DNA of 64,000 nucleotides from an uncultured Candidatus Saccharibacteria bacterium. Lineage in GTDB: Bacteria > Patescibacteriota > Saccharimonadia > CAZHVB01. Below the pieces are notes generated by a model. It ran no database searches, was not told the DNA's origin, and saw nothing but the letters and a program-made list of their open reading frames with translations. The position numbers were made by a program, and so were the translations under genes. Shown one piece after another: positions 240 to 31,312 of the stretch; the first letter of the stretch is position 1, and each line of letters begins with the position of its first letter. The stretch lies in the NCBI GenBank assembly GCA_964600295.1, contig CAZRIY010000001.1, positions 169,733 to 233,732 of the forward strand. The letters are read 5' to 3'.

Positions 240-614
240 CTAAAATAGCCCCGCAATATAGCCCACTATTAGACTGGCTACAATCGCTATAATCAAACCT
301 ATAACGGCGTTGGTAAGAATGCTTTGGGCTTGTTTGGTGCGGTCTGGATTACCGGAGCTGGTGATGTAAGTTATGCCAGCGTAAATTATTAGAATTACCG
401 CCAGTAGCCCGGCCAAAGCCAGAGCCATGCGTGTTACATTTGCCACTACAGTCCAGATCTGAATTAACTCAAAATGTATAATCTGGCAATCAAATTTGTC
501 GCCGACTTTCTCTGCTTGAAAATGGAGACCCTTACCCCAATGCGGAAAACCGAAGAACACATTTTCCGCGCACTCTTTATTGGCATGATCGGCAAACCAG
601 TTCAACCAATTCAT
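240..614 (-). CDS. T4SS pilin-like small membrane protein (VirB2/TrbC-like), paralog 2
   Basis: The C-terminal 62 aa (MALALAGLLAVILIIYAGITYITSSGNPDRTKQAQSILTNAVIGLIIAIVASLIVGYIAGLF) has the same two-helix hairpin plus (I/Y)ITS(A/S)GNP(E/D) motif as the neighbours. The 60-aa N-terminal extension is non-hydrophobic, so the true start may be the internal Met (about 429). It overlaps the upstream paralog by 4 nt. Confidence 0.55.
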   Translation of the reverse strand: MNWLNWFADHANKECAENVFFGFPHWGKGLHFQAEKVGDKFDCQIIHFELIQIWTVVANVTRMALALAGLLAVILIIYAGITYITSSGNPDRTKQAQSILTNAVIGLIIAIVASLIVGYIAGLF

Positions 615-1009
615 AACAACCCGCCGGGGATTAAGAAATTCAGTATGGCCGCCATAAATATGAATAATAGCAGAGCAATTATGGCGTTGGTTAGCATCTT
701 CTTAGCACCAGCAATAGCTTCGGGATTGCCGGCACTTGTGATGTATCTAATGCCACTAATTACAATCATCAGCACAATTACAATTCCAACTCCGGCGGAT
801 AAGAAACGAATGATACCGCCCAACATATCAAAAATGGGATTAACAATGTCTCCGGCGTCCCCCTTGCAACCCACCGGTATGGCAATCTTTACTTTTTTTG
901 CGCCCTTACCGCATTCTTCTGCGAAGACAAGGGAGGGTATAAAAATCAAACCTGATATTAAAATACTAACAGCTGCTGCAAAGATTTTTGGTTTCGTTAG
1001 CTTTAACAT
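611..1009 (-). CDS. T4SS pilin-like protein (VirB2/TrbC-like) with N-terminal signal peptide, paralog 3
   Basis: Signal peptide MLKLTKPKIFAAAVSILISGLIFIPSLVFA. The mature part has two hydrophobic helices flanking RYITSAGNPEAIAGAKK. This architecture is typical of conjugative pilins. Confidence 0.6.
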   Translation of the reverse strand: MLKLTKPKIFAAAVSILISGLIFIPSLVFAEECGKGAKKVKIAIPVGCKGDAGDIVNPIFDMLGGIIRFLSAGVGIVIVLMIVISGIRYITSAGNPEAIAGAKKMLTNAIIALLLFIFMAAILNFLIPGGLL

Positions 1010-1128
1010 TTCTATCTTTCACTCATGCTTACCCAGATTGTACTAGGGGTAAAACGGTATTACAATATAGAGTGTCGCGCCACATAAAATGTTGATTTTG
1101 TATCAAGATTGTGGTATAAAAGGAGATT

Positions 1129-1842
1129 ATGGCAATGGTTAAAGTAGAAGAACAATTCAGACCTTCACATGTTGAACGAGGGGGTAAAGTTCTAGAGCTA
1201 AAGCGCAGCCCTTCTCGCACTAAACGGTTAATAGCCATTGGATCAATTCCAGTTACACTAGCCGGCGGCATCGTTGGCTATCTTGCAACTCGTGGTGAAG
1301 ATGCACCATCCCGCTCCCGTTCTACTGCTGCGGGCAATTCGCAAGAGCGACCAAGCGTGTATCAGCCTGAAGCAGAATTAATAGACCCCATTGGAGATAC
1401 AACAACAGTTGAACCGGTGATAGTGGATCCGGCGCGCGATGCCATCATTCAGGCTGAACAAGCCAAAGATTCCTTGGTTTCAAACTGGCAGAACATCGTT
1501 AATAGTGACACTTACGAAGAGGCTTTCACCTACGCCGAGCATTTTTTTACAGCCCGCGTCATTAATACAGAGCCGGAATATGTCAGCAGTTTCATAGAAG
1601 ATGCCATGGCATTTGGTGGCACCAACCAACACCGTGAATTCAAGTGGGTAGTTATGCCGGAATTGACAGATTTTAACGGCAACCGTAGTCGAACTCTAGG
1701 TATTCAGGAATACGAGCTTAGGGACGTTGTAGAGCTTCAAGGCGATCTCGTCCAATATACGCTCTGGTTAGATAAGGTAAGTGGTGAATTGCTGATAGAT
1801 GGGCTCGAAAATCTGGAGCAGGGCGTTATAGAATCTTCCTAG
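1129..1842 (+). CDS. Bitopic membrane protein, hypothetical; VirB8/TcpC-like topology
   Basis: 237 aa with a single TM helix (LIAIGSIPVTLAGGIVGYLA) after a ~30-aa cytoplasmic tail, then a ~180-aa extracytoplasmic domain. It is the first gene of the plus-strand T4SS operon, divergent from the pilin genes. The VirB8-like assignment is inference from size and topology only. Confidence 0.35.
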   Translation: MAMVKVEEQFRPSHVERGGKVLELKRSPSRTKRLIAIGSIPVTLAGGIVGYLATRGEDAPSRSRSTAAGNSQERPSVYQPEAELIDPIGDTTTVEPVIVDPARDAIIQAEQAKDSLVSNWQNIVNSDTYEEAFTYAEHFFTARVINTEPEYVSSFIEDAMAFGGTNQHREFKWVVMPELTDFNGNRSRTLGIQEYELRDVVELQGDLVQYTLWLDKVSGELLIDGLENLEQGVIESS

Positions 1843-1914: not shown

Positions 1915-4566
1915 ATGCGCTCCCTCTTATGGAAAGGCCTGCTTTCGCTTATACTGATTGCGTCATTGTTGCCATCCGGAGTCTGGGCTCAACCGCCGGG
2001 GGTTGCCATCGGAAAATGGATCGACCGTGCCACCATTGAGGTAACTTCAGGCGAATTAGTTGGCGAGAAGTTTTATGACCCCCTTATAGATACGGTATCG
2101 GTTTTCGTTGAGCACCCTTCCTCTGATGCAGATGACTGCACGAGCTTATTCTTTTTTGGCTATCGACGAAACGACTTTGCGGGGGGGGACTGGGAAATCG
2201 CCGAGTCGCCGACATCTAACGAAAGTGATTACAGTACCGGCGCCGCCTACATCGTTATCAACAAACTCAACCAAGCCGGCACGCAGTGTATCTGGCCTGA
2301 AATCACGGCCGACTTAGCCAATGATACTGATAACGCAGAAGCAAAATTAGACGATCTACCTGAAGGTGAGGTTAAACAGCTTATCGGCCTAACTGACCCT
2401 GACAACAGCCGCATATTTTATTACTACGCTAATGAAAAGCATGATGAGTTAATACGAGTCGATGATTTTGACTACTACGTGCAGGTCGATACCAACGCAG
2501 CCGGAAACAAAGTGTTCGAAAAGACTGATGACGCAGACGAATGCTCCGATAGGATCGAGATAACGGGCAGCGGTGGCCCCACTTACGACGATGCGGAGCA
2601 CAGAATAAGAGTACTGGATGCTACATGCAAGGTAGAAAGTTCGGCTGCAATCCGGATAGGAGAAGACGAGGAGCGTTCCAAGAACCCTGTTGTAGGCCCC
2701 CTAACCAAGGATGATCTAGACAGCCGTAAGCAAAAAGGTGGGCCAGCCGGTGCAACGGATGTAGAGTGCGATGCCGGGCCACTGTCCTGGATTGTTTGTA
2801 CAGTTATTGACGCTATTAAAAGTGCGGCCGACTGGTTTTTGAAGGAAGTTATTACACCCTTCCTTAAGGTTAGTCCGCTGCAAGCAGAAAGCGGCAATAC
2901 CGTTTTTGAGAGTTGGAAAGGCATCCGCAACTTGGCCAATATACTGCTGATACCGGTCTTTTTTGTGCTTATTTTTGCCCAAGCCCTGTCCTTAAACATC
3001 GATGCCTATACTATTAAGAAAATGCTGCCAAAGTTGGTGGCGGCAGTCATTCTAATACAATTTTCCTTCTATGCCGTAGCTTTCTTAGTGGATATCTTCA
3101 ACGTACTGGGCAATGGCATTGGAGATTTGCTAACCAGTGCCGTCAAGGGTGAACAGCTAGGCGGCAGTGGGGGTACACAGTTTAAATTTGGGGAAGGTGA
3201 AAGCGTGGCAGCTGGATTAGCTATTACTTTAGGGCTCTTACTTACTGTGCCGTTTGCCATAGCTATTTTTGGATTCTTGCTAATACTAATGCTGGCCTTG
3301 TTGGCGGTGGTAGTCACCCTTATCTTTAGGCAGGTACTAATTGTCTTTCTGGCAATCTTGGCCCCCGTCGCGTTTGTGGCCTGGGTATTACCCAATACCC
3401 AGGGCTTATTTAAGCTTTGGTGGGATAGCCTTCTGAAAGCGCTGGCAATGTACCCATTGATCGTAATGTTGTTTGCGGCCGCCGTCATTGGATCATCTCT
3501 AATTAGCGGCGGGGCCATCAGTGGTCCTAAGACCGGAGCACTCAGGAACAACTTAGAAACCATTGCCGCAATCATACTCCTAATCATTCCCTTCGCTTTA
3601 ATCCCCCTTACTTTTCGGCTCGGCGGTACTGCCATGGCTGGTATAGCTAGTGGCGTCCAAAATTTTCGTGGGCGTCTGCCTGGTGGAGGTGGCGGCGGGC
3701 GGCGTGGCGGAGGGCCAGGCGGACCAGGTGGCCAACCCCGCCCCGGTACTTTTCGAGATCGTATGCAACAATATCGTAGAGCAACAGCGGCTGGCGTAAA
3801 TAGGACTGGACGAATACCTTTAATAGGCGGTGTGGCTAGAGTAATGTCAAGACAGGGTGTAGGCATAGGTAGGGGGGCAAGGACAGGAGCACAAATGGAA
3901 CTACAAAGACAAGTTGGCGAAAACGTTAAAGAAATCGAAAACCTGAGTCATGATCAGCGAAATTTACTAGCTTTTGGATCTCGGGGGGCAGCACTTGCTG
4001 CAATAGATAGGCAGGAAACCGACAGAACTATGGATGCGGCGCAGGCGGCCAGAGCACGACAAAACGTAGATCAAAATTGGGGATCGGTGAGTGCGCTGGC
4101 CAGAAATCCATCTATGCATCTTGCTGCCTTCTCCAAGCTGGCGGAGGACGGGCTGGCTACACATGAACAATTTGCAAGTGTTAGGGATGTCACGCGGGAC
4201 AACCCACAGGTTAGGGGTGCTGTATTAGGAAAAGCGGCTTTCGATATGTACAGTAAGGGCTCTACTAACTTTCTGCGATGGTCTGATGGTGAAGGTGCAG
4301 CTAATGATACAGTGCAAAGCTTCGTTGGCAGGATGGGGGCACAACAGTTTGCTGAGGCGAAGGATCTTGGAGATCCAGTAATACACGGTGTCCTGATTGA
4401 TAGGGCGCGTCAGAACCCAGAGACTGCTAATGCCCTGCGCCATGCCTTAACGCTAACAGCTTCGCCCAATACTCGTGAAGATATAAGATTGATTCTGGAA
4501 TCGGCCGGGCGCTCGACTGAACCCATCGCCACTGCTACTACTCGTGGTACCCCGGACGAAACTTAA
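1915..4566 (+). CDS. VirB6/TrbL-like (ConG-like) polytopic T4SS membrane protein with large N- and C-terminal extramembrane domains
   Basis: 883 aa. Signal peptide, then a ~300-aa extracellular domain, about 7 TM helices (residues ~330-600) and a Gly/Pro-rich linker (GGGGGRRGGGPGGPGGQPRPG, ~3670-3740). A ~270-aa C-terminal domain follows. Size and topology resemble ConG/TcpH-type VirB6 homologs of Gram-positive conjugation systems. Confidence 0.55.
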   Translation: MRSLLWKGLLSLILIASLLPSGVWAQPPGVAIGKWIDRATIEVTSGELVGEKFYDPLIDTVSVFVEHPSSDADDCTSLFFFGYRRNDFAGGDWEIAESPTSNESDYSTGAAYIVINKLNQAGTQCIWPEITADLANDTDNAEAKLDDLPEGEVKQLIGLTDPDNSRIFYYYANEKHDELIRVDDFDYYVQVDTNAAGNKVFEKTDDADECSDRIEITGSGGPTYDDAEHRIRVLDATCKVESSAAIRIGEDEERSKNPVVGPLTKDDLDSRKQKGGPAGATDVECDAGPLSWIVCTVIDAIKSAADWFLKEVITPFLKVSPLQAESGNTVFESWKGIRNLANILLIPVFFVLIFAQALSLNIDAYTIKKMLPKLVAAVILIQFSFYAVAFLVDIFNVLGNGIGDLLTSAVKGEQLGGSGGTQFKFGEGESVAAGLAITLGLLLTVPFAIAIFGFLLILMLALLAVVVTLIFRQVLIVFLAILAPVAFVAWVLPNTQGLFKLWWDSLLKALAMYPLIVMLFAAAVIGSSLISGGAISGPKTGALRNNLETIAAIILLIIPFALIPLTFRLGGTAMAGIASGVQNFRGRLPGGGGGGRRGGGPGGPGGQPRPGTFRDRMQQYRRATAAGVNRTGRIPLIGGVARVMSRQGVGIGRGARTGAQMELQRQVGENVKEIENLSHDQRNLLAFGSRGAALAAIDRQETDRTMDAAQAARARQNVDQNWGSVSALARNPSMHLAAFSKLAEDGLATHEQFASVRDVTRDNPQVRGAVLGKAAFDMYSKGSTNFLRWSDGEGAANDTVQSFVGRMGAQQFAEAKDLGDPVIHGVLIDRARQNPETANALRHALTLTASPNTREDIRLILESAGRSTEPIATATTRGTPDET

Positions 4567-4574
4567 GAAGAAGT

Positions 4575-5417
4575 TTGATGGCTACCTATAAAATTCCCCA
4601 AAACGTCGAAGCCGAAGATAAACTACTTGGCCCTTTTACCTTTAAGCAGTTCATCTTCCTGCTTATGGCGGCTTTTGCGGCGTTGGTAACCTGGTTGCTG
4701 TGGCGGATTAATCCTTGGGTCAGTTCACTGTCTATACCTTTTATACTGCTTTTCGGATTCTTGGGCATCTACCACCGTGAGGACCAACCGGTAGAGGTCT
4801 ACCTAGTAGCAGCGCTAAATTACTTGTTTAAGCCGAGGCGGCGAAAGTGGAGCCAAGAAGGCTTGGTAGAAACTGTCCGCCTGACCGCGCCCAAAGTTAA
4901 GCTAAGGCCCGAACTTAAAAGGCTCAGTTCCGAGCGGGGACAGCTAAAGACCCTGGCTAACATCATGGACACTCGGGGCTGGGCTATTAAGCGGCCGGAA
5001 CTCACCGAACCGCTGGCCAACCAGTATTTTTCGGCTGATGATCGACTGGCTATGCCTGATCTACCTTCATCTGCCACTGAACCGCTGGAGGTGCATGCCT
5101 ATGATGATCCGCTTGACCCACTTCAGTATGGCGACGCCGATAAGTTTTCTGATCTGGCCCAAACCAGCTCCAAGCAGGCCAAAGCCCAGGCCATAGCCAA
5201 AATGGAGGCTGCTATCAATACCAGACAACCCACAGACGCACCAGCGGCAGTGGTCAATAGCACCGACCAAGTAGAGCGGGTAAGATCTGACACTGCCAAA
5301 AACTTAGCTATGAACGATGTTTTACGGGTCAGCGAGATCGCTAAACAGGCCCAAAAAATTCCCAAGGGCGAGCTACCAAAAGGCATAGAGATAGATCTGC
5401 CAAATCCTGGCGAATAG
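4575..5417 (+). CDS. VirB3/PrgI-like T4SS membrane protein with extended C-terminal domain
   Basis: N-terminus PQNVEAEDKLLGPFTFKQFIFLLMAAFAALVTWLLW plus a second TM (LSIPFILLFGFLGIY). This two-TM hairpin is typical of VirB3/PrgI/TcpE proteins that precede VirB4. Confidence 0.45.
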   Translation: MMATYKIPQNVEAEDKLLGPFTFKQFIFLLMAAFAALVTWLLWRINPWVSSLSIPFILLFGFLGIYHREDQPVEVYLVAALNYLFKPRRRKWSQEGLVETVRLTAPKVKLRPELKRLSSERGQLKTLANIMDTRGWAIKRPELTEPLANQYFSADDRLAMPDLPSSATEPLEVHAYDDPLDPLQYGDADKFSDLAQTSSKQAKAQAIAKMEAAINTRQPTDAPAAVVNSTDQVERVRSDTAKNLAMNDVLRVSEIAKQAQKIPKGELPKGIEIDLPNPGE

Positions 5418-5485: not shown

Positions 5486-6403
5486 ATGGCGCTTCAAGAA
5501 AAACAGCCCCAACAGTCTAATCCTGTACCCACTGCGGCCGGTGGACTCCTCCCCGTCCAGCCAACCTCGGTTAATCAAACTAACCCGGCGGTATCCCCGC
5601 CAATTCAGCCCAACCCCGCACCGCAAGCCAGCCCTAGCCTGGCTGAACCAACCAAGCTGCCGAAAGCCAAAAAAACCAAGACCAAAGGGGTTTCGACCCA
5701 AGGCGCCTTGTTGATTTCGGAGATTCGCGACGGCCTGGTGATCATGAAGGATGGCAGCTTGCGAGCGGTAGTAATGTGCCAGTCAATCAATTTTGACCTG
5801 ATGAGTCCGGCCGAACGCGAGGCCGTGGAGTTTACTTACCAAGGTTTTTTGAACGCACTTTATTTCCCGATTCAAATCTTCATCCGCTCCCAGCGGGTGG
5901 ACCTCAACAGCTACATTGACAAGCTGGAAGCAATTCATACCGGTCAAGAGAACATTCTACTATCGCTGTTGATGGAGGATTACATTGCCTATGTACGCTA
6001 CTTAGTGGAGGCTGCTAATGTTATGGACAAGCAGTTTTATGTGGTAGTACCCTACTATCCGCCGCTGACCTTACAGAAAGGGGGAATTTCCACGGGTATC
6101 CACCGGTTTACTTCCTTCTTGCGCCCCAAAACCGGCCCGATTGTGATCAACCAGGCTGATTACGCCCGTTTCAAAGCCGAGCTGACCCAGCGGGTACAGG
6201 CGGTTTTATCGGGATTGAATCAAATGGGTACCCAGGCCGTGCCCCTAAATACTCAGGAACTGATCGAGCTTTACTACACAGTCTATAATCCCCAGACGGC
6301 ACTGAGTCAACGCTTGACCGATGTTGATGATTTGGAAGCACAGATGGTGGAAAAAGGTCAGGGGCAGGCACCGCCGGTTTTGCACGGAGATAGTCAACTA
6401 TGA
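5486..6403 (+). CDS. VirB4/TrbE-family T4SS ATPase, N-terminal segment (ends at the in-frame TGA 6401..6403)
   Basis: After a Pro-rich low-complexity N-terminus comes DGLVIMKDGSLRAVVMCQSINFDLMSPAEREAVEFTYQGFLNALYFPIQIFIRSQRVD, resembling the CagE/TrbE/VirB4 N-terminal domain. It is in the same frame as the next ORF, separated only by TGA. Confidence 0.6.
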   Translation: MALQEKQPQQSNPVPTAAGGLLPVQPTSVNQTNPAVSPPIQPNPAPQASPSLAEPTKLPKAKKTKTKGVSTQGALLISEIRDGLVIMKDGSLRAVVMCQSINFDLMSPAEREAVEFTYQGFLNALYFPIQIFIRSQRVDLNSYIDKLEAIHTGQENILLSLLMEDYIAYVRYLVEAANVMDKQFYVVVPYYPPLTLQKGGISTGIHRFTSFLRPKTGPIVINQADYARFKAELTQRVQAVLSGLNQMGTQAVPLNTQELIELYYTVYNPQTALSQRLTDVDDLEAQMVEKGQGQAPPVLHGDSQL

Positions 6404-6406
6404 GGG

Positions 6407-8422
6407 GTGGGGATGGCCTTACTGGGTAGATTCAAGAAGACCGCTGAAGTCGGGCTGGCCGAGCAACAGCGGCTGCGCGAAGCCGCCCAGGTTGAGCAAG
6501 AGTTTCGCGAAGGCATCACAACCTTGCGCGATTTTATCGCGCCTTCCTCGATTGAATTCAATTCCGATTACTTCCGCTTGGGAAACCGCTACGCTGCCAC
6601 TTTCTATGTCTACGGCTACCCTCGGCAGCTTTATACTGGCTGGTTATCTCCGATTATCAACGTTGATGAAACTATCGACCTGAGCATTTTCATTTACCCG
6701 GTAGAAAGCCGAGTGGTGCTAGAGAATTTGCGCAAAAAAGTTGGCCAGATGGAAGCCAGCATTTCCATCCTCCAAGAAAAAGGCCGGGTACGCGATCCTG
6801 GGCTAGATGCTTCAATTACCGATGCCGAGGAGCTGCGCGATAAACTCCAAGTTGGGGAAGAGCGCTTCTTTCGCTTTGGACTTTACCTAACGTTATATGC
6901 CGATACTCGCGAAGAGCTTCAAGCCGCCCAGCGCAAAATTGAGGGGATCTTTGGTCAAGAACTTGTCTATACCAAGATTGCCACCTTGCAGCTAGAACAA
7001 GGTTTTAACTCGACCGTGCCCCAAGGTATGGACCAGCTAGAAATCCGCCGCAATTTCAGTACGGGGGCGTTATCCACTAGCTTTCCTTTCACTTCGGCCG
7101 ACCTATCCCAAGAGAACGGCATTCTTTATGGCATCAACATGCACAACAATGGCTTGGTGATTTTCGATCGCTTTAGTTTGGAAAACGCCAACATGGTGGT
7201 GTTTGCCAAATCGGGTGCTGGTAAATCTTTTACGGTTAAGCTTGAGGCTTTGCGCTCACTAATGATGGGCACCCAAGTTATCGTCATAGATCCGGAGAAC
7301 GAATATCAGCGACTGTGCGAAGCTGTCGGGGGCAGCTATGTTCGGCTGAGCCTAAACTCCAAAACCTACATCAACCCCTTTGAACTGCCCCATGTACTGG
7401 ACGAGGAAGAAGCTGATAACGCCTTGCGGGCCAACTTAATTACCCTACACGGTTTATTGCGGTTGATGCTGGGGGCCCAGCAAGCCGGCGCCGCCTCCCA
7501 AATTTACGTTGGCCTTACACCCGAGGAAGAAGCTGATCTAGATCTGGCTTTAATCAATACTTACGGCCAAAAGGGCATTACCAATGATGCTTTGACGCAT
7601 GGTGCCACGCCACCGACCATCAAGGATCTTTACGAAACCCTGGTTAGCATGGAGGGCAATGGTCCTTCCCTGGCCCAACGGCTACGCAAGTTTACTACCG
7701 GCACTTTTTCTGGCATTTTTTCCAACCAATCCAGCGTTAGCTTAGACAATAACTTTATTGTTTTTAATATCCGCGATTTGGAAGAAGAACTGCGGCCGGT
7801 GGCTATGTACATTATTCTCAACCACGTTTGGAACCGAGTGAAGAGCGAAATGCGCCGACGTTACCTGATTGTCGATGAAGGCTGGCAGTTGATGCGTTAT
7901 GAGGATTCAGCCAACTTTTTGTTCTCAGTGGCCAAGCGAGCCCGCAAGTACGAACTGGGGTTAACCACAATTTCTCAGGACGTAGAAGATTTTCTGTCCT
8001 CGCGGATGGGACGGGCGATTGTGGCCAATTCCAGCTTGCAGATGTTGCTCAAGCAAGCGCCCTCGGCCGTCGATTTGGTGGCAGACACCTTTAAGTTAAC
8101 CAGCGAGGAAAAAAAGCGGCTATCCCAATTTCCGGTTGGACAGGGTCTATTTTTTGCCGGCTCCAACCATATCCATATGCGGATTGACGCCTCGCCCACT
8201 GAGACCCAGCTGATTACTACTGATCCCAAACAGTTGCGGGTGCTTCAAGCCATGGCCGAAAGTGGCAACACTGCTGCCGCTGCCACCTCATTGACTACTG
8301 AGCCCGTCGACCAAGAATCATCGACCGAGCCATCACGGGTTACCCCACCCGCATCATCGCAAATTGCGTCCCCGGGATCAGCTACTGATAAATTAATGCC
8401 CACCCAAACCCCAGAGGTTTAG
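6407..8422 (+). CDS. VirB4/TrbE-family T4SS ATPase, C-terminal segment containing the ATPase domain
   Basis: Walker A VVFAKSGAGKSFTVK; Walker B RRRYLIVDEGWQLM; motifs YGYPRQLYTGWLSPII and LTTISQDVEDF are typical of VirB4. The track start GTG 6407 is in frame with the upstream ORF. ATG 6413 has a GAGGGGTGGGG Shine-Dalgarno-like run 7 nt upstream. Confidence 0.8.
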   Translation: MGMALLGRFKKTAEVGLAEQQRLREAAQVEQEFREGITTLRDFIAPSSIEFNSDYFRLGNRYAATFYVYGYPRQLYTGWLSPIINVDETIDLSIFIYPVESRVVLENLRKKVGQMEASISILQEKGRVRDPGLDASITDAEELRDKLQVGEERFFRFGLYLTLYADTREELQAAQRKIEGIFGQELVYTKIATLQLEQGFNSTVPQGMDQLEIRRNFSTGALSTSFPFTSADLSQENGILYGINMHNNGLVIFDRFSLENANMVVFAKSGAGKSFTVKLEALRSLMMGTQVIVIDPENEYQRLCEAVGGSYVRLSLNSKTYINPFELPHVLDEEEADNALRANLITLHGLLRLMLGAQQAGAASQIYVGLTPEEEADLDLALINTYGQKGITNDALTHGATPPTIKDLYETLVSMEGNGPSLAQRLRKFTTGTFSGIFSNQSSVSLDNNFIVFNIRDLEEELRPVAMYIILNHVWNRVKSEMRRRYLIVDEGWQLMRYEDSANFLFSVAKRARKYELGLTTISQDVEDFLSSRMGRAIVANSSLQMLLKQAPSAVDLVADTFKLTSEEKKRLSQFPVGQGLFFAGSNHIHMRIDASPTETQLITTDPKQLRVLQAMAESGNTAAAATSLTTEPVDQESSTEPSRVTPPASSQIASPGSATDKLMPTQTPEV

Positions 8423-8437: not shown

Positions 8438-11400
8438 ATGGCCAAAGCCACTCCCGAAGAGCAAACCGAAAAAGACCAGTTAGACCGCACTTATAGGGAG
8501 TCGTTGAGCCAAGAAGATGTCGAGAGTGGGGTCAAACAAGCTGAATCTCACGCCAACCAGAGTTTTTATAACAATGGAGGCCAACCAAAAGGCTCCCAGC
8601 CATTTGGTTGGGTTGGCCGCCATCGCAAAAAACTTGTCACTGGTGGGATATTGGGAGTGCTAACTGGTGGTGGCCTGATTGGGCTTTTTTCATTTCTGGC
8701 TCCCTTAAAATTGGATTTCTTGGGCAAGAATATCGAGCAGACTCAACTGGACCGTCTCGAGTACACCGTAAATGGTCGTAGCCAGCGTTTTATGTACCAC
8801 CTGATGATGGCGGAAATAGCCGGCAATAATGGGGGCGATCCTAGTAACAATCGTTACTTCCGCGCTAAGGGCTGGTATCTAAGCGGCAATCCCCTGACTC
8901 AGTGGTATAAGGATATCCGCACCGACAAGTTTTTTAATGTGATGGAGCAGAAATACGGAGTCATCTTCGCTGCCGAAAGTGGAAATGCTCGCGGCCACCT
9001 GCGCGCCATCACCACTATTGATATGCCAGAATCCAAGGTCGATAGCCTCAGGCAATTATTTAAAGATATTGATACACCGAATGGCATAGATGTTGCCAAA
9101 CTGAACGAATTTGAGGGTGCTGTAGTTAATGAATTTGATAATGACCGTGATGCACGCCGAATGATCAGAAGTTTTATCAAGGATGACTCCCATGCCTGGC
9201 AGGTTCTCAAGCGGCGGCATTTGCGGCGATGGGCAGGAGAGCGACTGGGCATCCGTCGTTGGCGTTTCTTCGAGGGCACCCGCGATAAAACCGGTAAATC
9301 AGTTCGCACGACTTGGAGTAAGCTCACCGGTAACACCATGACTGGCAAAATCATCGGCTGTATTTTTTCGTTCGCTCTTTGTCCGGTTGATTCCAATGAC
9401 CTAAACGATAATGACAACAAGGTTGAAAATGGTAACGACCCAAATACCCAGCGATCGGTAGACGATACAGAAACCGATATCGACGACGGACAAGAGCGTG
9501 CCAAAGGACAGCTTGGCAAAGCCGATGAACGCTCGAGGATTCAAAAGTTAATTTCTAGAAAACTGATAATTCTAAGGGGTGTGAATATCCTCGACTGGCT
9601 GAGAACTTTCATAGCTATTGATGATAATATTTCTAGTCGTAAATTGACCAAAATGGTAGCCATTTCTCGAGCCGCAGAATACGCAACGGCCTACATGACT
9701 TTCGTGACGTTAACAGATCATCTCAAGGAAGGCGAAACCGTCACTGGCGAAGAAGTAAATGCAGCTATGCAGATGTTTCAATGTAGCGAATTTAGCGAGG
9801 CATATCAGCATATGATGGCCAAGCAAAATAGTGGTTCTAAAACGGCCAATATCGGTGCAGTGTATGCCCAGCAGAAGCAGCGCACCACCAAAGAATGCCC
9901 CTACTATGAAGAGGTAACTGACGAGCTTAAAGTTAACGGCCATGGTAGCAACGCCGCTAAAATTGAGAAATGGTACAACGATACCATCGGTCCGGTTATT
10001 GGTGAGATCGTGGATGCTGTTCGTTTTCTTGTGGAAAATCCGGTAAGCGCGGCCATCTTAAGCGTACTCGACTCCATATTCAACTTCTTACTACAGGGAT
10101 TGTTGGTAATCGTTAACTTTATATGGGACGAATCTGAGGAAGCTATCAAGAAACTGCTCAACAAGCTGGGCGAGGAAGTTATCTCTGGGCTGGGTGGGGC
10201 ACCACAATGCACCGCCAATGAATCGGGCGGCCGTAAGGTCGGCTGCGCTATTGGCGGCGCAGCAGTTACCCAAGAACAGTATCTGGCCTCCATTGGCGGC
10301 ATGAACCTGACCGATGATCAAGTTAATGAAGTGAAGCAAAAGGTAGCCTTTGCCAAGCAGCAAGATAGAGCCGCTACCAGCTGGTGGCATAGGCTGGCTT
10401 CAACCGAAGATCCCAATTCCCTGCTGGCCAGAACCGCAATGCGCTTGCCCAGCAATACTTCCCAGCTAGCCAGCGAATTTAGCAATCTGGCTAGCAGCTT
10501 CACCCCAACCAGCCGACTAACCGCCTCGGGCCAAGCACTAGCTGCTACAATCAGCGATTCGGCGTTAGCGGTGCCAGACCCGGATGAAAATCTTTTCGGC
10601 GTCGAATATAAAGGCTTTCTCAATAAAACCATCGAGAAGTCGCTACCCTATGACGGTAAAGCTAAAGACAAAGCAGGCGAACAGGCGCTGCTGGACGCCA
10701 TTGCTGATGGCCGCATTAAGGCAGAGCCACCTGCCGGTAATTGTGAAGATGAAATGGCTGCCCACACCGCACAATTGGTAGGTGATGACGACATTAAGAC
10801 CGATGATGATGGGCCAACCATGATGAGTGTATGTAAACTTGATACGGCTATTAGTGAAGCCATGAAATCATTCTTTACCGAGGAAGATGATGGTGGCATT
10901 GGAACTTCAACAAGCATTGATGGCTCTGGAGAGACGGGTGTAAATGGACTCGAGTGCCCAGATAAATTACAGGAAAACCCAACCCATCCGGGCTACTATA
11001 AAATGCCCGAAGCGCCAAGTGGTGAGTACGTTATTTACTCTGTTGATGCCCGTAGATATGGAAGCAAAGAGTTAGTTTGCTCAATTTATACGGTAGCTCT
11101 GGCCTATAAGGATAAATACGGTAATAAATCAACTGTTAACGTCGGTGACCTTAACGGCGGATATCCGCACGCCAGCCACTATAAAGGCATTGCCGTTGAT
11201 ATAGATGCGCACGGCCAAATCTGTGCGGCTGACCATACCCATCCTACGCCAGGTGATGGATCGGGACTTTGCGGACCATATAACGCAGAAGCCACCGTCG
11301 ACCTTGGCAAAATGTGGATAGACACCGGTATTTTGCAGGATATATGGTGGTGCGAGAAACCAGGAGACGGATCAACCGAAGCCATTCGCATATATGGCGA

Positions 11401-11506
11401 ACAAAAGGGAAAACCGGTAAATATTAAGTGCCTGTCGGGCCATGATAACCATTTCCACGTTAATATCCAGGAGAAGTATGCCTTGCCTGGTTCATGGACA
11501 CCTTAG
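8438..11506 (+). CDS. Large membrane-anchored T4SS-associated protein with C-terminal LAS-family (peptidase M15/VanY-like) zinc-peptidase signature
   Basis: 1022 aa with one N-terminal TM (LVTGGILGVLTGGGLIGLFSFLAPL). An acidic low-complexity segment (DSNDLNDNDNKVENGNDPNTQRSVDDTETDIDDGQERAKG) sits at ~9380-9500, and a hydrophobic segment at ~residue 530. The C-terminal YPHASHYKGIAVDIDAHG (~11161..11215) matches the SxHxxGxAxD motif, and GHDNHFHV (~11438..11461) is a His-cluster. Confidence 0.5.
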   Translation: MAKATPEEQTEKDQLDRTYRESLSQEDVESGVKQAESHANQSFYNNGGQPKGSQPFGWVGRHRKKLVTGGILGVLTGGGLIGLFSFLAPLKLDFLGKNIEQTQLDRLEYTVNGRSQRFMYHLMMAEIAGNNGGDPSNNRYFRAKGWYLSGNPLTQWYKDIRTDKFFNVMEQKYGVIFAAESGNARGHLRAITTIDMPESKVDSLRQLFKDIDTPNGIDVAKLNEFEGAVVNEFDNDRDARRMIRSFIKDDSHAWQVLKRRHLRRWAGERLGIRRWRFFEGTRDKTGKSVRTTWSKLTGNTMTGKIIGCIFSFALCPVDSNDLNDNDNKVENGNDPNTQRSVDDTETDIDDGQERAKGQLGKADERSRIQKLISRKLIILRGVNILDWLRTFIAIDDNISSRKLTKMVAISRAAEYATAYMTFVTLTDHLKEGETVTGEEVNAAMQMFQCSEFSEAYQHMMAKQNSGSKTANIGAVYAQQKQRTTKECPYYEEVTDELKVNGHGSNAAKIEKWYNDTIGPVIGEIVDAVRFLVENPVSAAILSVLDSIFNFLLQGLLVIVNFIWDESEEAIKKLLNKLGEEVISGLGGAPQCTANESGGRKVGCAIGGAAVTQEQYLASIGGMNLTDDQVNEVKQKVAFAKQQDRAATSWWHRLASTEDPNSLLARTAMRLPSNTSQLASEFSNLASSFTPTSRLTASGQALAATISDSALAVPDPDENLFGVEYKGFLNKTIEKSLPYDGKAKDKAGEQALLDAIADGRIKAEPPAGNCEDEMAAHTAQLVGDDDIKTDDDGPTMMSVCKLDTAISEAMKSFFTEEDDGGIGTSTSIDGSGETGVNGLECPDKLQENPTHPGYYKMPEAPSGEYVIYSVDARRYGSKELVCSIYTVALAYKDKYGNKSTVNVGDLNGGYPHASHYKGIAVDIDAHGQICAADHTHPTPGDGSGLCGPYNAEATVDLGKMWIDTGILQDIWWCEKPGDGSTEAIRIYGEQKGKPVNIKCLSGHDNHFHVNIQEKYALPGSWTP

Positions 11507-11507
11507 G

Positions 11508-12719
11508 ATGAATTCCAAGACACTCGTGCAGCTAGGTCTCATGACCCTATTGTTGGGCTTACCCATGAAGTTGTTGGCAATCAGTTCCCCGGATCGTCAC
11601 TCGGTTATTTACGACACTGTTTATTACGATCCCACAGACGTTAGCCAAGAATGCAGTGGCGGCACGGACCAGCTATCCGAAGATACCGTTCCCCAACCTT
11701 ACAATGATTTGTTTGAAGAGGCAGCCGCTAAGTTTAAAACCGACGTGGCCTTGTTGGCTGCCATTTTTTGGGTAGAACACCACGGCATAGGGGCAAAATG
11801 GGACCCCAAGAGTTGGCCCGATCATAAGGGGCCTTGGGCTTCGTCGACCGTTGGAGCTTCTGGACCATTTCAATTCATGCCAGATACGTGGGGTTACCCA
11901 CCGGATTATACGCCCGGTTATGCCATTGATGGTGATAAGGATGGCGATAGAGAAATCCAGGACCTTACAGATTCAGCCTATAGTGCCGCAAACTATCTTT
12001 CCGCAAATGGCGGAAAAGTTGGCGCCGAGGTAGGCAACCCTGATCTTGATGTCCCCCAAAAACCTTCATTTAGCAACGCCATTTGGCATTACAATCATGA
12101 TCCTGCCTACGTCAAAACTGTTCTTGAAGCGCGTGAAGGAATTCTAAAGGGCGGAGGCGCGTCCGCGAGCGGTAGTAGCGGAACCTGTGCCACCGGCAAC
12201 TGGATTTGGCCGATCGCTAAGAAGGACTATCTGGGACTTTCAACCTGCTGGAATACATCCCGCATTCTCAATGGCAATAAGTACCACCACGGCGGCCTTG
12301 ATATATCGGCGGGCCGCGGTGTTGATGCTTTAGCGGCTGATGGGGGTACTATTGAAGAAGTGAATCTAGATGCGAGCAATGGCAACGGTATATATGTGGT
12401 GATAAAACATGGAGGTAAGTTCTGGTCGGTTTACAAACATTTGCTCGAAGCTAAGGTTAAGAAAGGGGATCAAGTTAACCAGGGTGATGTAATTGGTGCT
12501 GTTGATAGTACTGGCACCAGTACGGGCGATCACCTTCATTTCAATATCCAAGATCGAGGTGGAGTATCGGGCTCGGTAGAGGACGGAGGCACTCTGAACC
12601 CCTTAGACTACTTGCCCGAGGATGGACGCAACCTTGAAACTGGAAATCCCGACCTTGGTAAATGTATACCGGGCGACAAGGGTCAAACTGGTAATGGCAT
12701 TCAGGTAATTAATACATAG
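11508..12719 (+). CDS. CwlT-like bifunctional cell-wall hydrolase: lytic transglycosylase (SLT) + M23 (LytM) peptidase, secreted
   Basis: Signal peptide MNSKTLVQLGLMTLLLGLPMKLLA; start chosen at ATG 11508, 1 nt after the upstream stop (ORF track 11442 would overlap). SLT motifs AAIFWVEHHG, GASGPFQFMPDTWG and YSAANYLS. M23 motifs HHGGLDISAG and GDHLHFNIQ. Confidence 0.8.
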   Translation: MNSKTLVQLGLMTLLLGLPMKLLAISSPDRHSVIYDTVYYDPTDVSQECSGGTDQLSEDTVPQPYNDLFEEAAAKFKTDVALLAAIFWVEHHGIGAKWDPKSWPDHKGPWASSTVGASGPFQFMPDTWGYPPDYTPGYAIDGDKDGDREIQDLTDSAYSAANYLSANGGKVGAEVGNPDLDVPQKPSFSNAIWHYNHDPAYVKTVLEAREGILKGGGASASGSSGTCATGNWIWPIAKKDYLGLSTCWNTSRILNGNKYHHGGLDISAGRGVDALAADGGTIEEVNLDASNGNGIYVVIKHGGKFWSVYKHLLEAKVKKGDQVNQGDVIGAVDSTGTSTGDHLHFNIQDRGGVSGSVEDGGTLNPLDYLPEDGRNLETGNPDLGKCIPGDKGQTGNGIQVINT

Positions 12720-12727: not shown

Positions 12728-14152
12728 ATGCAAACAAGAACCAAGTTATTTTTACTAGCCATGTCAGCCTTGATACTTCTAATTGTTGGCTGGCAGTTGT
12801 TATCCACGGGTAAGGTCGAGGTCACCACTTCTCCTGGCGTCAGCAGTTCCTTTTCGATTCGGGATGAAACCGGTAAGACTATAGAAACAAAAAAAGGTAA
12901 AAGAATTGCTGAACGTTTGCGGCCTGGTGAGTACTCGGTAACAGCAGAGCACGACAAAGGCGCCACCAAACAATCGTTCACTATCAAGGCTCGCGATACC
13001 CTCAGTTTGGTCCTGAAGCTGGAGGAATTAAAAACGCCGGTTCTAATAACTGATCGGCCAGCAGTGGATATCCAGCTGGGAAGTGGACTGTTGTTTGTTG
13101 ATCCCACACTTGATAGGCTATTTCAACTCAAAGAAGGTAGCACCATACCCCAACCCCTCTTCGACACCGTGGACGCTCAGCGCATCGAATGGCTGGGCCA
13201 AGACAGCGGTTTGATCCAAACCACCGAGCGCAATGGCTACTATTTTGATGGCTCAATGATTCGTGACATTGGGCTGGTATCCGTTGAAGAAGAGGATCAA
13301 GTGATAATTAACGCCGTAAGTGCTGACCCGGGCTCGCGAAGCTTTGTTTACAGCTCTGCCAAAGAACTATTTATTAGCCGCAATCTTGCACCGCGCCAGC
13401 ATCTGCTTACCGTTGATAAGGAAAAACCATCATTGGCGTTAAAGGGTGGTAACTTGGCATTTTTCTACTACCCTGAAGGCTTCCCCGAATACACTACGCC
13501 AGAACCAGCCTTTGTATTTGATCTGACTAGCAGCACCAAGACTGAGATTGTTTCAGATCAATTAATATTTGATATTCATTGGTCGGCCAGCGGGGATAAA
13601 TTGATTTATGACACCCCAGAAAATCTATATATATACGACTATCAAGCCAGGCGCGTAATAAACCGCATTTCAAAAAATCTAAATGTTGCCGTTCCGGTTC
13701 TGTGGCTTAATGACGCGGACTTTTTGTATGGCGACGAGGGTGGAATTTGGCGTTTCGAATTAAATAGTTCGCAGGCTATCAAACTAGCAAATGCCAGTGG
13801 TGCGAATGAGGGGTTTGATATTGCCAGACGATTAGATTCAGACGAAATTTTCTTTAGTAATGGTGATTCCGCGAGTCCGGGTATTTATAAATTACTACTC
13901 GCCGGAGATATCCCTGAAAATACGAGGATCCTAGCTAAAATCCTCCCCTCCAGTACCGTGCAGTTTGAAATTAAGTATTCGGCCCTTGCCGAACCAGCTA
14001 CTGTACTAATCCAGACCTTTGTGGATCGGCGGCCTGGCACTACCCCGGCCGAATATCTGGCCAAGGCCGCAGAATACAAAAAGGCGGCCCTGGATTTTCT
14101 TCAGAGCCACGGCGTAGACACCTCAAAGATTAGAATCCATTATCTGGAATAG
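12728..14152 (+). CDS. Secreted/anchored hypothetical protein, possibly beta-propeller (TolB-like)
   Basis: 474 aa with N-terminal TM/signal (LFLLAMSALILLIVGWQLL). Last gene of the plus-strand T4SS block. No catalytic motif recognised. Confidence 0.4.
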   Translation: MQTRTKLFLLAMSALILLIVGWQLLSTGKVEVTTSPGVSSSFSIRDETGKTIETKKGKRIAERLRPGEYSVTAEHDKGATKQSFTIKARDTLSLVLKLEELKTPVLITDRPAVDIQLGSGLLFVDPTLDRLFQLKEGSTIPQPLFDTVDAQRIEWLGQDSGLIQTTERNGYYFDGSMIRDIGLVSVEEEDQVIINAVSADPGSRSFVYSSAKELFISRNLAPRQHLLTVDKEKPSLALKGGNLAFFYYPEGFPEYTTPEPAFVFDLTSSTKTEIVSDQLIFDIHWSASGDKLIYDTPENLYIYDYQARRVINRISKNLNVAVPVLWLNDADFLYGDEGGIWRFELNSSQAIKLANASGANEGFDIARRLDSDEIFFSNGDSASPGIYKLLLAGDIPENTRILAKILPSSTVQFEIKYSALAEPATVLIQTFVDRRPGTTPAEYLAKAAEYKKAALDFLQSHGVDTSKIRIHYLE

Positions 14153-14276: not shown

Positions 14277-14555
14277 CTATTCTAGTGTAGTTATCTGAAT
14301 ATGTAGTCTATGTATCGGCCGCGTAGAGGTTTGGACGCATTTGACGATTAGATCTTGCTGGCGCAGCCGCAGCTCGGAAGCTACTGCTGCGCTAGGAGTT
14401 ATAACCTTGAGTACGCCCTCATTGAGACTTTTGGCGCGGCATTGACCCGGGAATTCTTCTTCTAAAATCGATTGAATAATTTTGAGAGCATCGGCTCGTT
14501 CCAAATCGAGCTGTTGGGCCTTACGGGCTAAATAGAGTTTGGCATTCTCTAACAC
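14277..14555 (-). CDS. DUF721-family protein (recF-downstream small protein)
   Basis: 92 aa, located immediately downstream of recF as in the canonical dnaA-dnaN-recF-DUF721-gyrB arrangement. Confidence 0.55.
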   Translation of the reverse strand: MLENAKLYLARKAQQLDLERADALKIIQSILEEEFPGQCRAKSLNEGVLKVITPSAAVASELRLRQQDLIVKCVQTSTRPIHRLHIQITTLE

Positions 14556-14595
14556 CCCCTCAGTATGGTAAACCCCTCAACTCGGTGCAAGCCGG

Positions 14596-15645
14596 CTAGA
14601 GTTTGATCAATTGGTGCGGCTTTGGGAGTTGCTTGGTTAACCCCCGCTGATCGGTAGTGGTAATAATGGTTTGGACTTTATCCAATTTAGCCAACAGGCG
14701 CAGCCGGCGGGTCTGATCCAGCTCGCTGAAGACATCGTCCAGCAGCAACATCGGCTGCTTGTCCGTGTGCCGTTTTAACCATTGCAATTGGGCCAGTTTA
14801 AGGGCCAGCACCAGTGTGCGCACTTCGCCGCGGCTGGCCACCACAGCCGCCGGCTTATGACCTAGCGCCACCGCCACTTCATCGCGGTGGGGACCCAAGC
14901 TGGTAGCGCCAAAACGGATATCTCGTTGCAATTTTTGGTTTAGACCTTTGAGTAGTTGCTCGCTATATTCACCCTCCCCCAGACCGGTCTGGTAGGTAAG
15001 ATGCAGGGCTGGCTTGGCACCGGCCAGCTGCCGGTAAAGGCTGGGCAGGCGGCGGTTAACGTAGGCGATAAACTTAGCACGTAAATCCACTAGCTGGGCG
15101 GCTAGCTCTACCAAGGTGACGTCCCAGGCAAATACCTGGTCTTCAATGGCCGCTCGCTGTTTTTGGCGCAACAAGTGGTTGCGCTGATTGACCACGCGGC
15201 GGTAAGCCAGCAAATTTTGCCAGTACTGGGGGTGGCTCTGGATCAAGGTTTGGTTGAGCCAGCGCCGCCGCTCTTCCGGGGCGCCGTTGATAATTTTTAG
15301 GCTGTCGGGCTCAAACAACACCACCGGCAAGCTGCCTAGATAGGCTTCGGGCTTGATGTTGGTTTGGTTAACTTTTAGCCGTTTGCGACCACCAGTCGGA
15401 TAAACCAGCTCAATTGTGGTTTTGGCGGCGGCGCCCTCTAGTCGGTACCAATCGGCCGTGTGCCGGACCAGGTCGCGGTCCCGCGCCCGCCAGGACTTGG
15501 TAGTGGCCAAAACATAAAGCGATTCCAATAGATTGGTTTTGCCGGCGCCGTTGGCTCCTACCACTAGCGTGACACCAGGCGAAAAGGTAAAGACTTGTTG
15601 GCTATAAGAGCGAAAGTTGGCCAGTTTCAGGCTATCAATCGGCAT
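14596..15645 (-). CDS. recF: DNA replication and repair protein RecF
   Basis: N-terminus MPIDSLKLANFRSYSQQVFTFSPGVTLVVGANGAGKTNLLESL (Walker A) and the C-terminal ABC/SMC signature region. Position downstream of dnaN. Confidence 0.9.
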   Translation of the reverse strand: MPIDSLKLANFRSYSQQVFTFSPGVTLVVGANGAGKTNLLESLYVLATTKSWRARDRDLVRHTADWYRLEGAAAKTTIELVYPTGGRKRLKVNQTNIKPEAYLGSLPVVLFEPDSLKIINGAPEERRRWLNQTLIQSHPQYWQNLLAYRRVVNQRNHLLRQKQRAAIEDQVFAWDVTLVELAAQLVDLRAKFIAYVNRRLPSLYRQLAGAKPALHLTYQTGLGEGEYSEQLLKGLNQKLQRDIRFGATSLGPHRDEVAVALGHKPAAVVASRGEVRTLVLALKLAQLQWLKRHTDKQPMLLLDDVFSELDQTRRLRLLAKLDKVQTIITTTDQRGLTKQLPKPHQLIKL

Positions 15646-15662
15646 AGAACGGTGCGGCGAGC

Positions 15663-16766
15663 CTAGGAGCGCAGGGGCATAATGATGTGGAGATAGCTTT
15701 TGTCTTCGGTGGGACGTATGACTACTGGGTTAACTTTGCCGGATACAGCTAGTTTGATTTGGGGAGAATTAATCACACTGAGGGCGTCTCCCAAATAACG
15801 GTAATTCAGGGCTACTTGGGCGTCATCGCCGTTAATTTCAGCTTTGGTGTCGGAGACATTCTCGCCTACCTGAGAGGCTACCGAGCGCAGCCGTAAACTG
15901 GAGCTTTGGTTATCTACCTCAAGGGTAATGCTGCCGCCGCCGGTTTGGGCAAACAGCCCGGCCACTTTGGTTAGGTTGCCGAGTTCCGCCGTATCGACGG
16001 TGACGACCGTGGGAGAATCTTTGGGAATCAGGCTGCGGTAATCGGGAAACTGGCCGTCGATTAGCCGCGATATTAGCTCGATATTATCCAGTTTAAACAA
16101 GGCTTGGTTTTCTTCCACCACCACTTCCAGGGTTTCGCTGTCATCACCAATCATCCGCAACAGTTCTTGGATGGTGCGAGCCGGAACTATTAGGTTTATC
16201 TGGCCGGTCTGGCCTTTTTGGCGGGGAATGATTTTTTCTGCCAGGCGGTAGCTATCGGTAGCCACTATGACCAGGTTTGAACCCTCAGAGTATAGGTAAA
16301 CACCGCCCAACACCGGACGGGTGTCGTCGGTTGAGGCGGCCAGTACCACCACGCTAGCCGCGGCTTTAAAATCTTGGGCTGGCAAACTAAACAGGGCCGA
16401 TTTTTTGAGACTGGGAATTGAGGGAAATTCAGCGGCTTCAATGCCGTTAAAGGTCGATTGGTAGTGGTTGGTGGTAACTTTGAGGTTGGTTTTATCTAGT
16501 TCCAGGCTGACGGTATCGTCTGGCAGGTTACCAACAAACTCGGCTAGTAGTCTAGCCGGTACCGTGATGGCCCCAGCTTGATCAACTTTAGCCCCAATCC
16601 AATAATTAATACCGAGTTCAAGATTGGTGGTCGATAGTTTTAGACGCTTACCATCAGTAGCCACTAGAACGTGGGCCAATACCGGCAGTGTGGCCTGTGA
16701 TCCCACAATTCTACCTACCGCGCCCAGGGCTTTAGCCAAGTTGTCTTTGGTTGCGCTAACCTTCAT
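15663..16766 (-). CDS. dnaN: DNA polymerase III beta sliding clamp
   Basis: 367 aa; MKVSATKDNLAKALGAVGRIVGSQATLPVLAHVLV is a typical DnaN N-terminus. Located between dnaA and recF. Confidence 0.9.
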   Translation of the reverse strand: MKVSATKDNLAKALGAVGRIVGSQATLPVLAHVLVATDGKRLKLSTTNLELGINYWIGAKVDQAGAITVPARLLAEFVGNLPDDTVSLELDKTNLKVTTNHYQSTFNGIEAAEFPSIPSLKKSALFSLPAQDFKAAASVVVLAASTDDTRPVLGGVYLYSEGSNLVIVATDSYRLAEKIIPRQKGQTGQINLIVPARTIQELLRMIGDDSETLEVVVEENQALFKLDNIELISRLIDGQFPDYRSLIPKDSPTVVTVDTAELGNLTKVAGLFAQTGGGSITLEVDNQSSSLRLRSVASQVGENVSDTKAEINGDDAQVALNYRYLGDALSVINSPQIKLAVSGKVNPVVIRPTEDKSYLHIIMPLRS

Positions 16767-16992
16767 AACTATCTTCCCATATATATTAATTGGTGATAGT
16801 GATTAGTGTGGTGGAAAAAGCCGGCCCGATTGGTTGATTGCAGATCAACAGGAGTGGTTAAAAACCGGGGAAAAACCAAGAAAGACTGTGTAGAAAACCG
16901 GTGGTTTATCCACAACCCAGATTGATTAAATTTTTTTATCACTAGATTCTCCTTTTTTATCCCCAAATAATTCCCCGGCTCGTCCACAGCTT
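16767..16992. other. Candidate oriC segment (dnaA-dnaN intergenic): DnaA boxes plus AT-rich unwinding region
   Basis: Perfect TTATCCACA at 16906..16914. Box-like TTATCCCCA (~16955) and GTGGTGGAAAAA (~16811). AT-rich stretches at ~16785-16800 and ~16920-16960. Confidence 0.55.
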
Positions 16993-18339: not shown

Positions 18340-18402
18340 TACTATACTAGCCGCTGGGACAGCTTTCCACAACCCGGCTGCCGAAAGCCCCAACAAGCGC
18401 AA

Positions 18403-18578
18403 ATATTATCCACACCACACCCCATACTCTGTAAAACTGTGGAAAAACCCCATGCCTTAGTGGAAAAACCACTTGACGCCGCCCGTCAAAAAGCCGTCTA
18501 ATGATTGAGCTAAAAAATTAGTCAATCTTGGACTTACGACTGTAATTTAGTGCCAACTTCTTATATGGTAGATACAAT
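18403..18578. promoter_or_regulatory. dnaA upstream region / second DnaA-box cluster and rpmH promoter region
   Basis: Perfect TTATCCACA at 18406..18414. Two TGTGGAAAA / AGTGGAAAA box-like sites (~18437-18462). Palindrome TTGACG-CCGCC-CGTCAA at 18473..18489. Confidence 0.5.
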
Positions 18579-18716
18579 ATGCCCAAACGAACTTTCCAAC
18601 CCAAAACCCGCCATAAGAAGCGCGTCCACGGCTTTTTTAAACGCATGAGCACGCGGGCCGGTCGCAACCTACTGGCACGTCGCCGCAACAAAGGCCGCCA
18701 GCGTCTGTCTCACTAA
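18579..18716 (+). CDS. rpmH: 50S ribosomal protein L34
   Basis: Translation [45 protein letters not shown] (45 aa), a canonical L34. Below the ORF-track length cutoff. Confidence 0.9.
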
Positions 18717-18806
18717 ATCGGTAGTTAGTAGCTAGTATCTAGTAGCTGGGGTTGGGCTTTATTACTGGCTACCGTCCGCCAGCTACTGACTGCTAAACTA
18801 AAACAT

Positions 18807-19148: not shown

Positions 19149-19305
19149 TATAGTTGCTCGCTTTGCTCGCAAGCCGGTATAATTGTGGGATTGTAATTAA
19201 GGCCTCACCACTCGACGCGCTCCGCTTGCTCGCGGCAAGCCACAAGAAGAGTGACTCCGAGCGAAGTCGAGAAGCCAACTGTGCGTTGGGGCCAGAGGAA
19301 CCGCG

Positions 19306-22860: not shown

Positions 22861-22897
22861 CGCGTTGGTACTAACAGTAGTTTATACTGATACCGAT

Positions 22898-24936: not shown

Positions 24937-24946
24937 TTCTAAGAGC

Positions 24947-26953: not shown

Positions 26954-26955
26954 GT

Positions 26956-28647: not shown

Positions 28648-28649
28648 GG

Positions 28650-29174: not shown

Positions 29175-29236
29175 ATGTTTATTTTAGCAAGCCGTAAAAG
29201 CTAATAACTAAATACTGACATAAAAGGTAGCAAAAG

Positions 29237-31252: not shown

Positions 31253-31312
31253 TTAACAGATCTTAACATTAACCTATATAACAGGGTTCAGGAAAGCGTT
31301 AAAGAGGCAGAG

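Follow-up and report, generated by a model that had tools for sequence, protein, structure and literature searches.

The closest described relatives of the genes discussed here occur in the type IV secretion systems (T4SSs) of Patescibacteria and on conjugative plasmids of Gram-positive bacteria. In the passages of Quiñonero-Coronel et al. (2025; PMC12102498) that bear on this subject, TrsD outnumbers every other T4SS component in Patescibacteria, is remotely homologous to the N-terminus of VirB4, and is associated with an adjacent virB4 gene in 1,664 of 2,272 homologues. The same passages place the T4SS clusters of Patescibacteria often near dnaA, dnaN and rnpA, and, citing Wang et al. (2023), list the TrsD homologue of Southlakia epibionticum ML1 as essential and report the T4SS to be essential for the epibiotic lifestyle. 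Here we analyze a pair of this kind in a 64,000-nucleotide (nt) stretch of DNA (the window) from an uncultured Candidatus Saccharibacteria bacterium (contig CAZRIY010000001.1, positions 169,733 to 233,732), where two open reading frames (ORFs) in the same frame are separated by a single TGA.

It is highly probable that these ORFs are two separate chromosomal T4SS genes of a member of the Saccharibacteria (Patescibacteria), one encoding a TrsD-like protein and the other a short-form VirB4 ATPase. The in-frame TGA lies where one gene ordinarily ends and a second, probably coupled one begins; it does not mark a break in a once-intact gene. The features of the junction are as follows.

5486..6403, plus strand: TrsD-like gene, 305 amino acids, TGA stop (precomputed match to Pfam PF26593 "TraC-like", predicted fold, gene context)
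6401..6403, plus strand: stop codon (TGA) that ends the TrsD-like gene (sequence; all 80 related loci have a stop in the corresponding position)
6402..6412, plus strand: spacer with the Shine-Dalgarno-like purine run GAGGGGTGGGG, overlapping the last two bases of the TGA (sequence)
6413..8422, plus strand: short-form VirB4-like ATPase gene, 669 amino acids, TAG stop (NCBIfam CD1110-family VirB4, Pfam, motifs)

The TrsD-VirB4 pair of Patescibacteria has already been published, and the window holds a typical further member. Measured against the passages of PMC12102498, the window matches the Patescibacteria systems in its VirB2-like pilins, its VirB6-like, PrgI/VirB3-like, TrsD and VirB4 proteins and its VirB1-like hydrolase, as well as in the adjacency of TrsD to virB4 and the location of the cluster near dnaA, dnaN and rnpA. 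There is no material difference from those systems as they are presented there, the 9-nt in-frame spacer of the window being a minor variant of the usual 1-nt overlap.

Conjugation systems of the pGO1/pSK41 (TrsD-TrsE) subclass in Gram-positive bacteria have the same architecture, a TrsD protein followed by a short VirB4. In pSK41, trsD (227 amino acids) is separated from trsE (672 amino acids) by a 14-nt spacer, with a VirB3-like gene before the pair, and the window pair is arranged likewise; in the staphylococcal plasmids pSK41/pGO1 (MPF_FATA, pGO1 subclass) a cell-wall hydrolase lies downstream of TrsD-TrsE, as it does in the window. The ATPase of the window aligns over its full length with pSK41 TrsE (25% identity, E-value 6e-41), residue 40 to residue 36, which puts the split at one and the same point in both. 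Unlike its plasmid counterparts, the window cluster is chromosomal and adjoins dnaA; its upstream protein is only remotely similar to theirs (27 bits to the NCBIfam TrsD model, cut-off 200) and has an extra disordered N-terminus rich in proline and glutamine. Full-length VirB4 proteins (pCF10 PrgJ, R388 TrwK, the VirB4 of mycoplasma integrative and conjugative elements [ICEs]) are single chains of 796–898 amino acids. The two proteins of the window are jointly colinear with them, and the predicted fold of the TrsD-like protein matches TrwK, but the N-terminal region of approximately 200 residues is a separate polypeptide in the window.

The boundary between the two genes

The ORFs 5486..6403 (305 amino acids) and 6407..8422 share one reading frame and are separated by the TGA at 6401..6403, coordinates of the preliminary description that we confirm in the sequence. 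After the TGA come the codons GGG GTG GGG and then the ATG at 6413, which opens the 669 amino acid ORF ending at 8422. The purine run reported 7 nt upstream of this ATG is also present, and the distance holds for its GAGG core (6402..6405). The downstream ORF had been drawn from 6407; the frame is correct, but the real start is ATG 6413, whose Met is invariant among 29 aligned homologues, and GTG 6407 was rejected as a start codon on this ground. The first 40 of the best 120 ATPase homologues all begin with MGLF/MALF...KK, in alignment with the same Met. Folding of the RNA around the junction (6385..6475) reveals nothing unusual (z = -0.79), which gives no support to read-through or to a regulatory structure at the junction.

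We surveyed the junction at the DNA level in 80 loci, each from a different Saccharibacteria species, mapping both genes in every one; together with the window this gives 81 junctions. All 80 loci carry a homologue of the upstream gene (43–61% identity) that terminates, by a stop codon of its own, at or close to the start of the ATPase gene. In the window, as in every related locus, a short VirB4 gene thus directly follows a gene for a free-standing protein of 200–350 amino acids. No orthologue at these loci has a sense codon at the TGA position. The comparison of orthologous loci proposed earlier thus places a stop at the same boundary throughout; the TGA itself varies and the frame is rarely shared. 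Over the 81 junctions the stop is TAA in 55, TGA in 15 and TAG in 11. In 51 of the 80 relatives the stop and start codons overlap by 1 nt, mostly as TAATG and in a few cases as TGATG or TAGTG, and with such an overlap the two genes are necessarily in different frames. The relative frames among the relatives are distributed 60, 13 and 7; the genes differ in frame in 73 and share it in only 7, which is about the chance rate. For the 27 junctions that do not overlap (26 relatives and the window) the counts in the three possible frames are 11, 8 and 8, again as expected by chance. Because the spacer of the window is 9 nt long, the shared frame there is a coincidence.

A Shine-Dalgarno-like motif is found at -18..-4 from the ATPase start in 76 of the 81 junctions, usually formed by the codons of the conserved C-terminus of the upstream protein (...RELQ). 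The arrangement is one expected of a coupled pair, with an overlap (51 of 80) or a very short spacer (9 nt with GAGG in the window) and a Shine-Dalgarno-like motif where the upstream gene ends.

TGA is a genuine stop codon elsewhere in the window, as had been stated from rnpA and yidC. It terminates 10 of the 57 long ORFs. Both rnpA (18807..19148) and yidC (19306..20073) end in TGA and have full-length, end-to-end Pfam matches, and the gene for dTDP-4-dehydrorhamnose epimerase (rfbC; 43022..43609, minus strand) ends in TGA with a full-length Pfam match as well. Because these three genes stop at TGA with full-length profile matches, genetic code 25, in which UGA encodes glycine, is rejected.

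The two proteins and full-length VirB4

The downstream protein is readily classified. It matches the NCBIfam model NF045971 (VirB4-like conjugal transfer ATPase, CD1110 family) with 376.2 bits (E-value 3.2e-112), above the cut-off of 325, and it matches the Pfam families P-loop_TraG, AAA_10 and DUF87. Its Walker A motif (KSGAGKS) is encoded at approximately 7208..7228 and its Walker B motif (LIVDE) at approximately 7865..7879; in the alignment of 29 homologues the lysine of Walker A and the Asp-Glu of Walker B are, like the start Met, invariant. It covers positions 183–744 of the 752 in NF045971, with the first 180 or so unmatched, and is accordingly a short form, unlike pCF10 PrgJ, which covers positions 1–751. 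The matches to TIGR00929 and to the F-type TraC model begin at position 212 (of 792) and position 293, respectively. The preliminary description had placed the boundary between the N-terminal domain and the ATPase core. This is imprecise: approximately 265 residues precede the Walker A motif in the downstream ORF and the profiles match from 183 and 212, so the boundary lies inside the N-terminal region of VirB4. The C-terminal tail of the ATPase (8240..8419; approximately 60 amino acids) is of low complexity, rich in serine, threonine and proline, and missing from many homologues.

The upstream protein is TrsD-like and probably belongs to the Pfam family PF26593 ("TraC-like"). The exact 305 amino acid protein is on record in NCBI with a precomputed PF26593 match, and its best 120 homologues, 213–375 amino acids long, all carry this family. 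A scan of the ORF gave no match in our Pfam copy, which does not contain the PF26593 model. AlphaFold predicts a disordered N-terminus (approximately residues 1–65) and a folded core (approximately residues 75–270, pLDDT approximately 90), and the modelled core appears to resemble the N-terminal part of VirB4. The low-complexity N-terminus, rich in proline and glutamine and encoded at 5486..5690, varies widely in length among homologues.

Do the two proteins together correspond to one VirB4? A Foldseek comparison of the upstream protein's AlphaFold model with the PDB gave, as its 13 best matches, only chains of R388 TrwK/VirB4 (E-values 4.5e-5 to 9e-3); the next matches had E-values above 0.2. 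The last 80 residues of the upstream ORF match positions 234–281 of a full-length model of mycoplasma-ICE VirB4, and the downstream ORF matches positions 286–893, directly after them. On a conceptual fusion of the two ORFs, the full-length VirB4_plasma model spans the junction, with residues 226–910 corresponding to profile positions 234–893. In the full-length PrgJ of pCF10 (796 amino acids), the alignment to the short ATPase family does not begin until residue 225, and the short ATPase lacks exactly the first 180–225 positions of its full-length relatives. These results support, through a remote signal, the view that the TrsD-like protein corresponds, as a protein on its own, to the first 200 or so residues of full-length VirB4 and that the ATPase gene encodes the rest. 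The preliminary description had treated the two ORFs as one VirB4 homolog; joint colinearity agrees with this, but the upstream ORF appears to represent the known TrsD family, which had gone unrecognized.

A profile of the upstream family retrieved 3,291 relatives from a set of 1.84 billion representative proteins. The 150 best matches have total lengths of 125–478 amino acids with a single exception, P0357 (898 amino acids), which was found in Logan on four contigs. In this protein, a natural covalent fusion, a linker of approximately 70 amino acids rich in proline, alanine and glycine connects a TrsD-like part to a VirB4 ATPase; residues 3–882 of P0357 align in one stretch to VirB4_plasma positions 92–893. 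Its existence suggests that the two halves can work as a single chain in some lineage.

Several observations weigh against this interpretation of the pair. At the sequence level the upstream protein shows weak homology to the N-termini of VirB4, and its match to the TrsD/TraD model NF041427 (27.2 bits, E-value 3e-6) is far from the curated cut-off of 200. The Foldseek TM-scores are low (0.34, normalized to a query that includes approximately 90 disordered residues), and the output does not give the aligned residue range of TrwK. With hhalign, the upstream family profile gave no significant alignment to pCF10 PrgJ (probability 0.6%) and a marginal one to pSK41 TrsD (probability 23%, E-value 9e-4), these targets, taken as single sequences, being too weak at such a distance. 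As for the coupling of translation and the physical association of the two proteins, we infer both from the gene arrangement, and since the window has a 9-nt spacer in place of the typical overlap, independent initiation is equally possible there. A search of PDB sequences with the upstream family profile gave chance matches only.

Alternatives to the proposed gene pair

A continuous VirB4 gene might have been broken by a recent nonsense mutation, or might only appear broken through a sequencing or assembly error, and full-length VirB4 proteins of 800–900 amino acids do exist elsewhere (PrgJ, 796; P0357, 898). A search with the conceptual 978 amino acid fusion, however, gave 120 best matches that are all 625–747 amino acids long and cover only the downstream 59–68%; in neither this search nor that with the upstream ORF does any of the best 120 homologues span the boundary. 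The downstream ORF is intact, 64–75% identical to its homologues and complete in its invariant Walker residues, with no sign of the decay expected of a pseudogene, and a stop occupies the corresponding boundary in each of the 80 related species. A second assembly had been suggested as a check of 6401..6403. In a separate Logan assembly (run SRR6868922), which may share reads with the source record, the junction DNA is identical and the gene calls are two genes of 305 and 669 amino acids. Together with the comparative data, the Logan junction excludes a sequencing error and a recent nonsense mutation, and we give a pseudogene or artefact practically no weight. Programmed read-through of the UGA, which would make a single 978 amino acid TrsD-VirB4 fusion as the main or a regulated minor product, draws on the in-frame arrangement of the window, with only three sense codons (Gly-Val-Gly) after the TGA, and on the natural fusion P0357 of another lineage, which makes it plausible that a fused product could work. 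Neither the in-frame arrangement nor the stop context is conserved among orthologues: the genes of 73 of the 80 relatives are in different frames, mostly owing to the 1-nt overlap, the seven in-frame cases occur at the chance rate, and the stop is TAA in most relatives. Moreover, in four of the seven relatives that do share the frame, the spacer itself contains two or three in-frame stops (for example, TAA TGA TAG in locus L032). The invariant start Met of the ATPase, the unremarkable folding of the RNA after the stop and the conserved genes of the window that end in TGA argue in the same direction, and we consider read-through extremely improbable. Near-cognate decoding of the UGA could still give a small amount of covalent fusion in this species, which is conceivable because the genes are in frame with only Gly-Val-Gly between them. 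If so, the low-level fusion could be functional, as natural fusions exist, and perhaps an intermediate toward gene fusion. We regard this as very unlikely, and nothing suggests selection for such a product.

The upstream gene might instead be unrelated to VirB4, a mere accessory T4SS protein, in which case nothing would be split. The absence of a match in the Pfam copy scanned, the NCBIfam matches far under their cut-offs and the non-significant hhalign comparison with PrgJ are all in line with this. It is hard to reconcile with the Foldseek result, in which the best matches are exclusively TrwK/VirB4, with full-length VirB4 hidden Markov models that run colinearly across both the junction and the natural fusion, and with an ATPase that is short by exactly the N-terminal segment. 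The family name "TraC-like" in Pfam and the remote homology to the VirB4 N-terminus stated in the passages of PMC12102498 also speak for a relationship, and an unrelated accessory protein seems very improbable to us. We therefore retain two separate genes, a TrsD-like gene and a short-form VirB4 gene, as the explanation of the locus. Of the possibilities raised in the preliminary description, a deliberately split, two-polypeptide VirB4 with a restart proves essentially right, given the abutting pairs in all 80 relatives, usually with TAATG and a Shine-Dalgarno-like motif; it is, however, the known architecture of a family and involves no recoding event.

Gene neighbourhood and a model of the pair

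The pair lies within a T4SS cluster near one end of the window, which contains the following further genes and ORFs.

240..614 and 611..1009, minus strand: tandem T4SS pilin genes, VirB2-like (Pfam PF18895 T4SS_pilin)
1029..1271, minus strand: third small ORF, no family match
474..1046 and 1129..1842, plus strand: ORFs without a match in the family scan
1915..4566, plus strand: large membrane protein with weak VirB6/TrbL similarity (Pfam TrbL, E-value 0.005, below cut-off), first gene of the plus-strand run
4575..5417, plus strand: PrgI-family (VirB3-like) gene, directly upstream of the TrsD-like gene in the same operon (Pfam PF12666 PrgI, E-value 6.5e-13)
8438..11506, plus-strand cluster: 1022 amino acid gene of the T4SS operon, no significant Pfam or NCBIfam match
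11442..12719, plus strand: VirB1-like cell-wall hydrolase with SLT and M23 peptidase domains, downstream in the same cluster (Pfam Peptidase_M23, E-value 2.4e-22; SLT_2, E-value 3e-9)
12728..14152, plus-strand cluster: 474 amino acid gene of the T4SS operon, no significant Pfam or NCBIfam match

The pilin genes and the ORF 1029..1271 point away from the main T4SS operon in their transcription. The ORF 474..1046 is probably spurious, since it overlaps the pilin genes, and the hydrolase probably starts further downstream than 11442, since the 1022 amino acid ORF overlaps its annotated start by 65 nt. The PrgI-family protein has 280 residues, compared with 117 in pCF10 PrgI; only the first 91 of its residues match the PrgI profile (91 positions), which leaves a C-terminal extension of approximately 190 amino acids. 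Neither a relaxase nor a coupling protein was found among the scanned ORFs of the window, the scan covering part of them.

The T4SS cluster ends approximately 130 bp from the neighbourhood of the replication origin (14277..20518), an origin-proximal position that agrees with what the passages of PMC12102498 describe.

14277..14555, minus strand: dciA-like
14596..15645, minus strand: recF
15663..16766, minus strand: dnaN
16993..18402, minus strand: dnaA
18807..19148, plus strand: rnpA
19306..20073, plus strand: yidC
20057..20518, plus strand: jag-like gene (KH/R3H)

The 400-bp gap between the divergent dnaA and rnpA genes (18403..18806) is a candidate oriC. After the origin region comes a block of cell-envelope polysaccharide genes (20765..45374) with glycosyltransferases of families GT1, GT2 and GT4, as well as the following.

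22742..24936: Wzm/Wzt-type ABC exporter
29237..31252: 671 amino acid DUF7657/DUF7654 protein
40823..42208: O-antigen ligase-like Wzy_C protein
43022..43609, minus strand: dTDP-rhamnose epimerase

How might the TrsD-like and VirB4 genes work as a pair? The gene arrangement suggests that they form part of one operon and that their translation is coupled. In most relatives ribosomes would reinitiate at TAATG, where the first stop overlaps the second start by one base; in the window they would reinitiate or load at ATG 6413 by means of the GAGG in the 9-nt spacer after the TGA. Such coupling would yield roughly matched amounts of the TrsD-like and ATPase polypeptides. The two would then form a non-covalent, VirB4-like assembly at the membrane, together with the PrgI/VirB3-like and VirB6-like proteins.

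As a discovery the pair is of small importance, since it has been published and the window is typical. For annotation it means that the two ORFs should be neither merged nor flagged as a pseudogene. The usual 1-nt TAATG overlap in the 80-species survey is a small detail absent from the passages of PMC12102498 considered here. This overlap fits a need for matched amounts of two VirB4-like halves in a secretion system that is reported to be essential for the epibiotic lifestyle.

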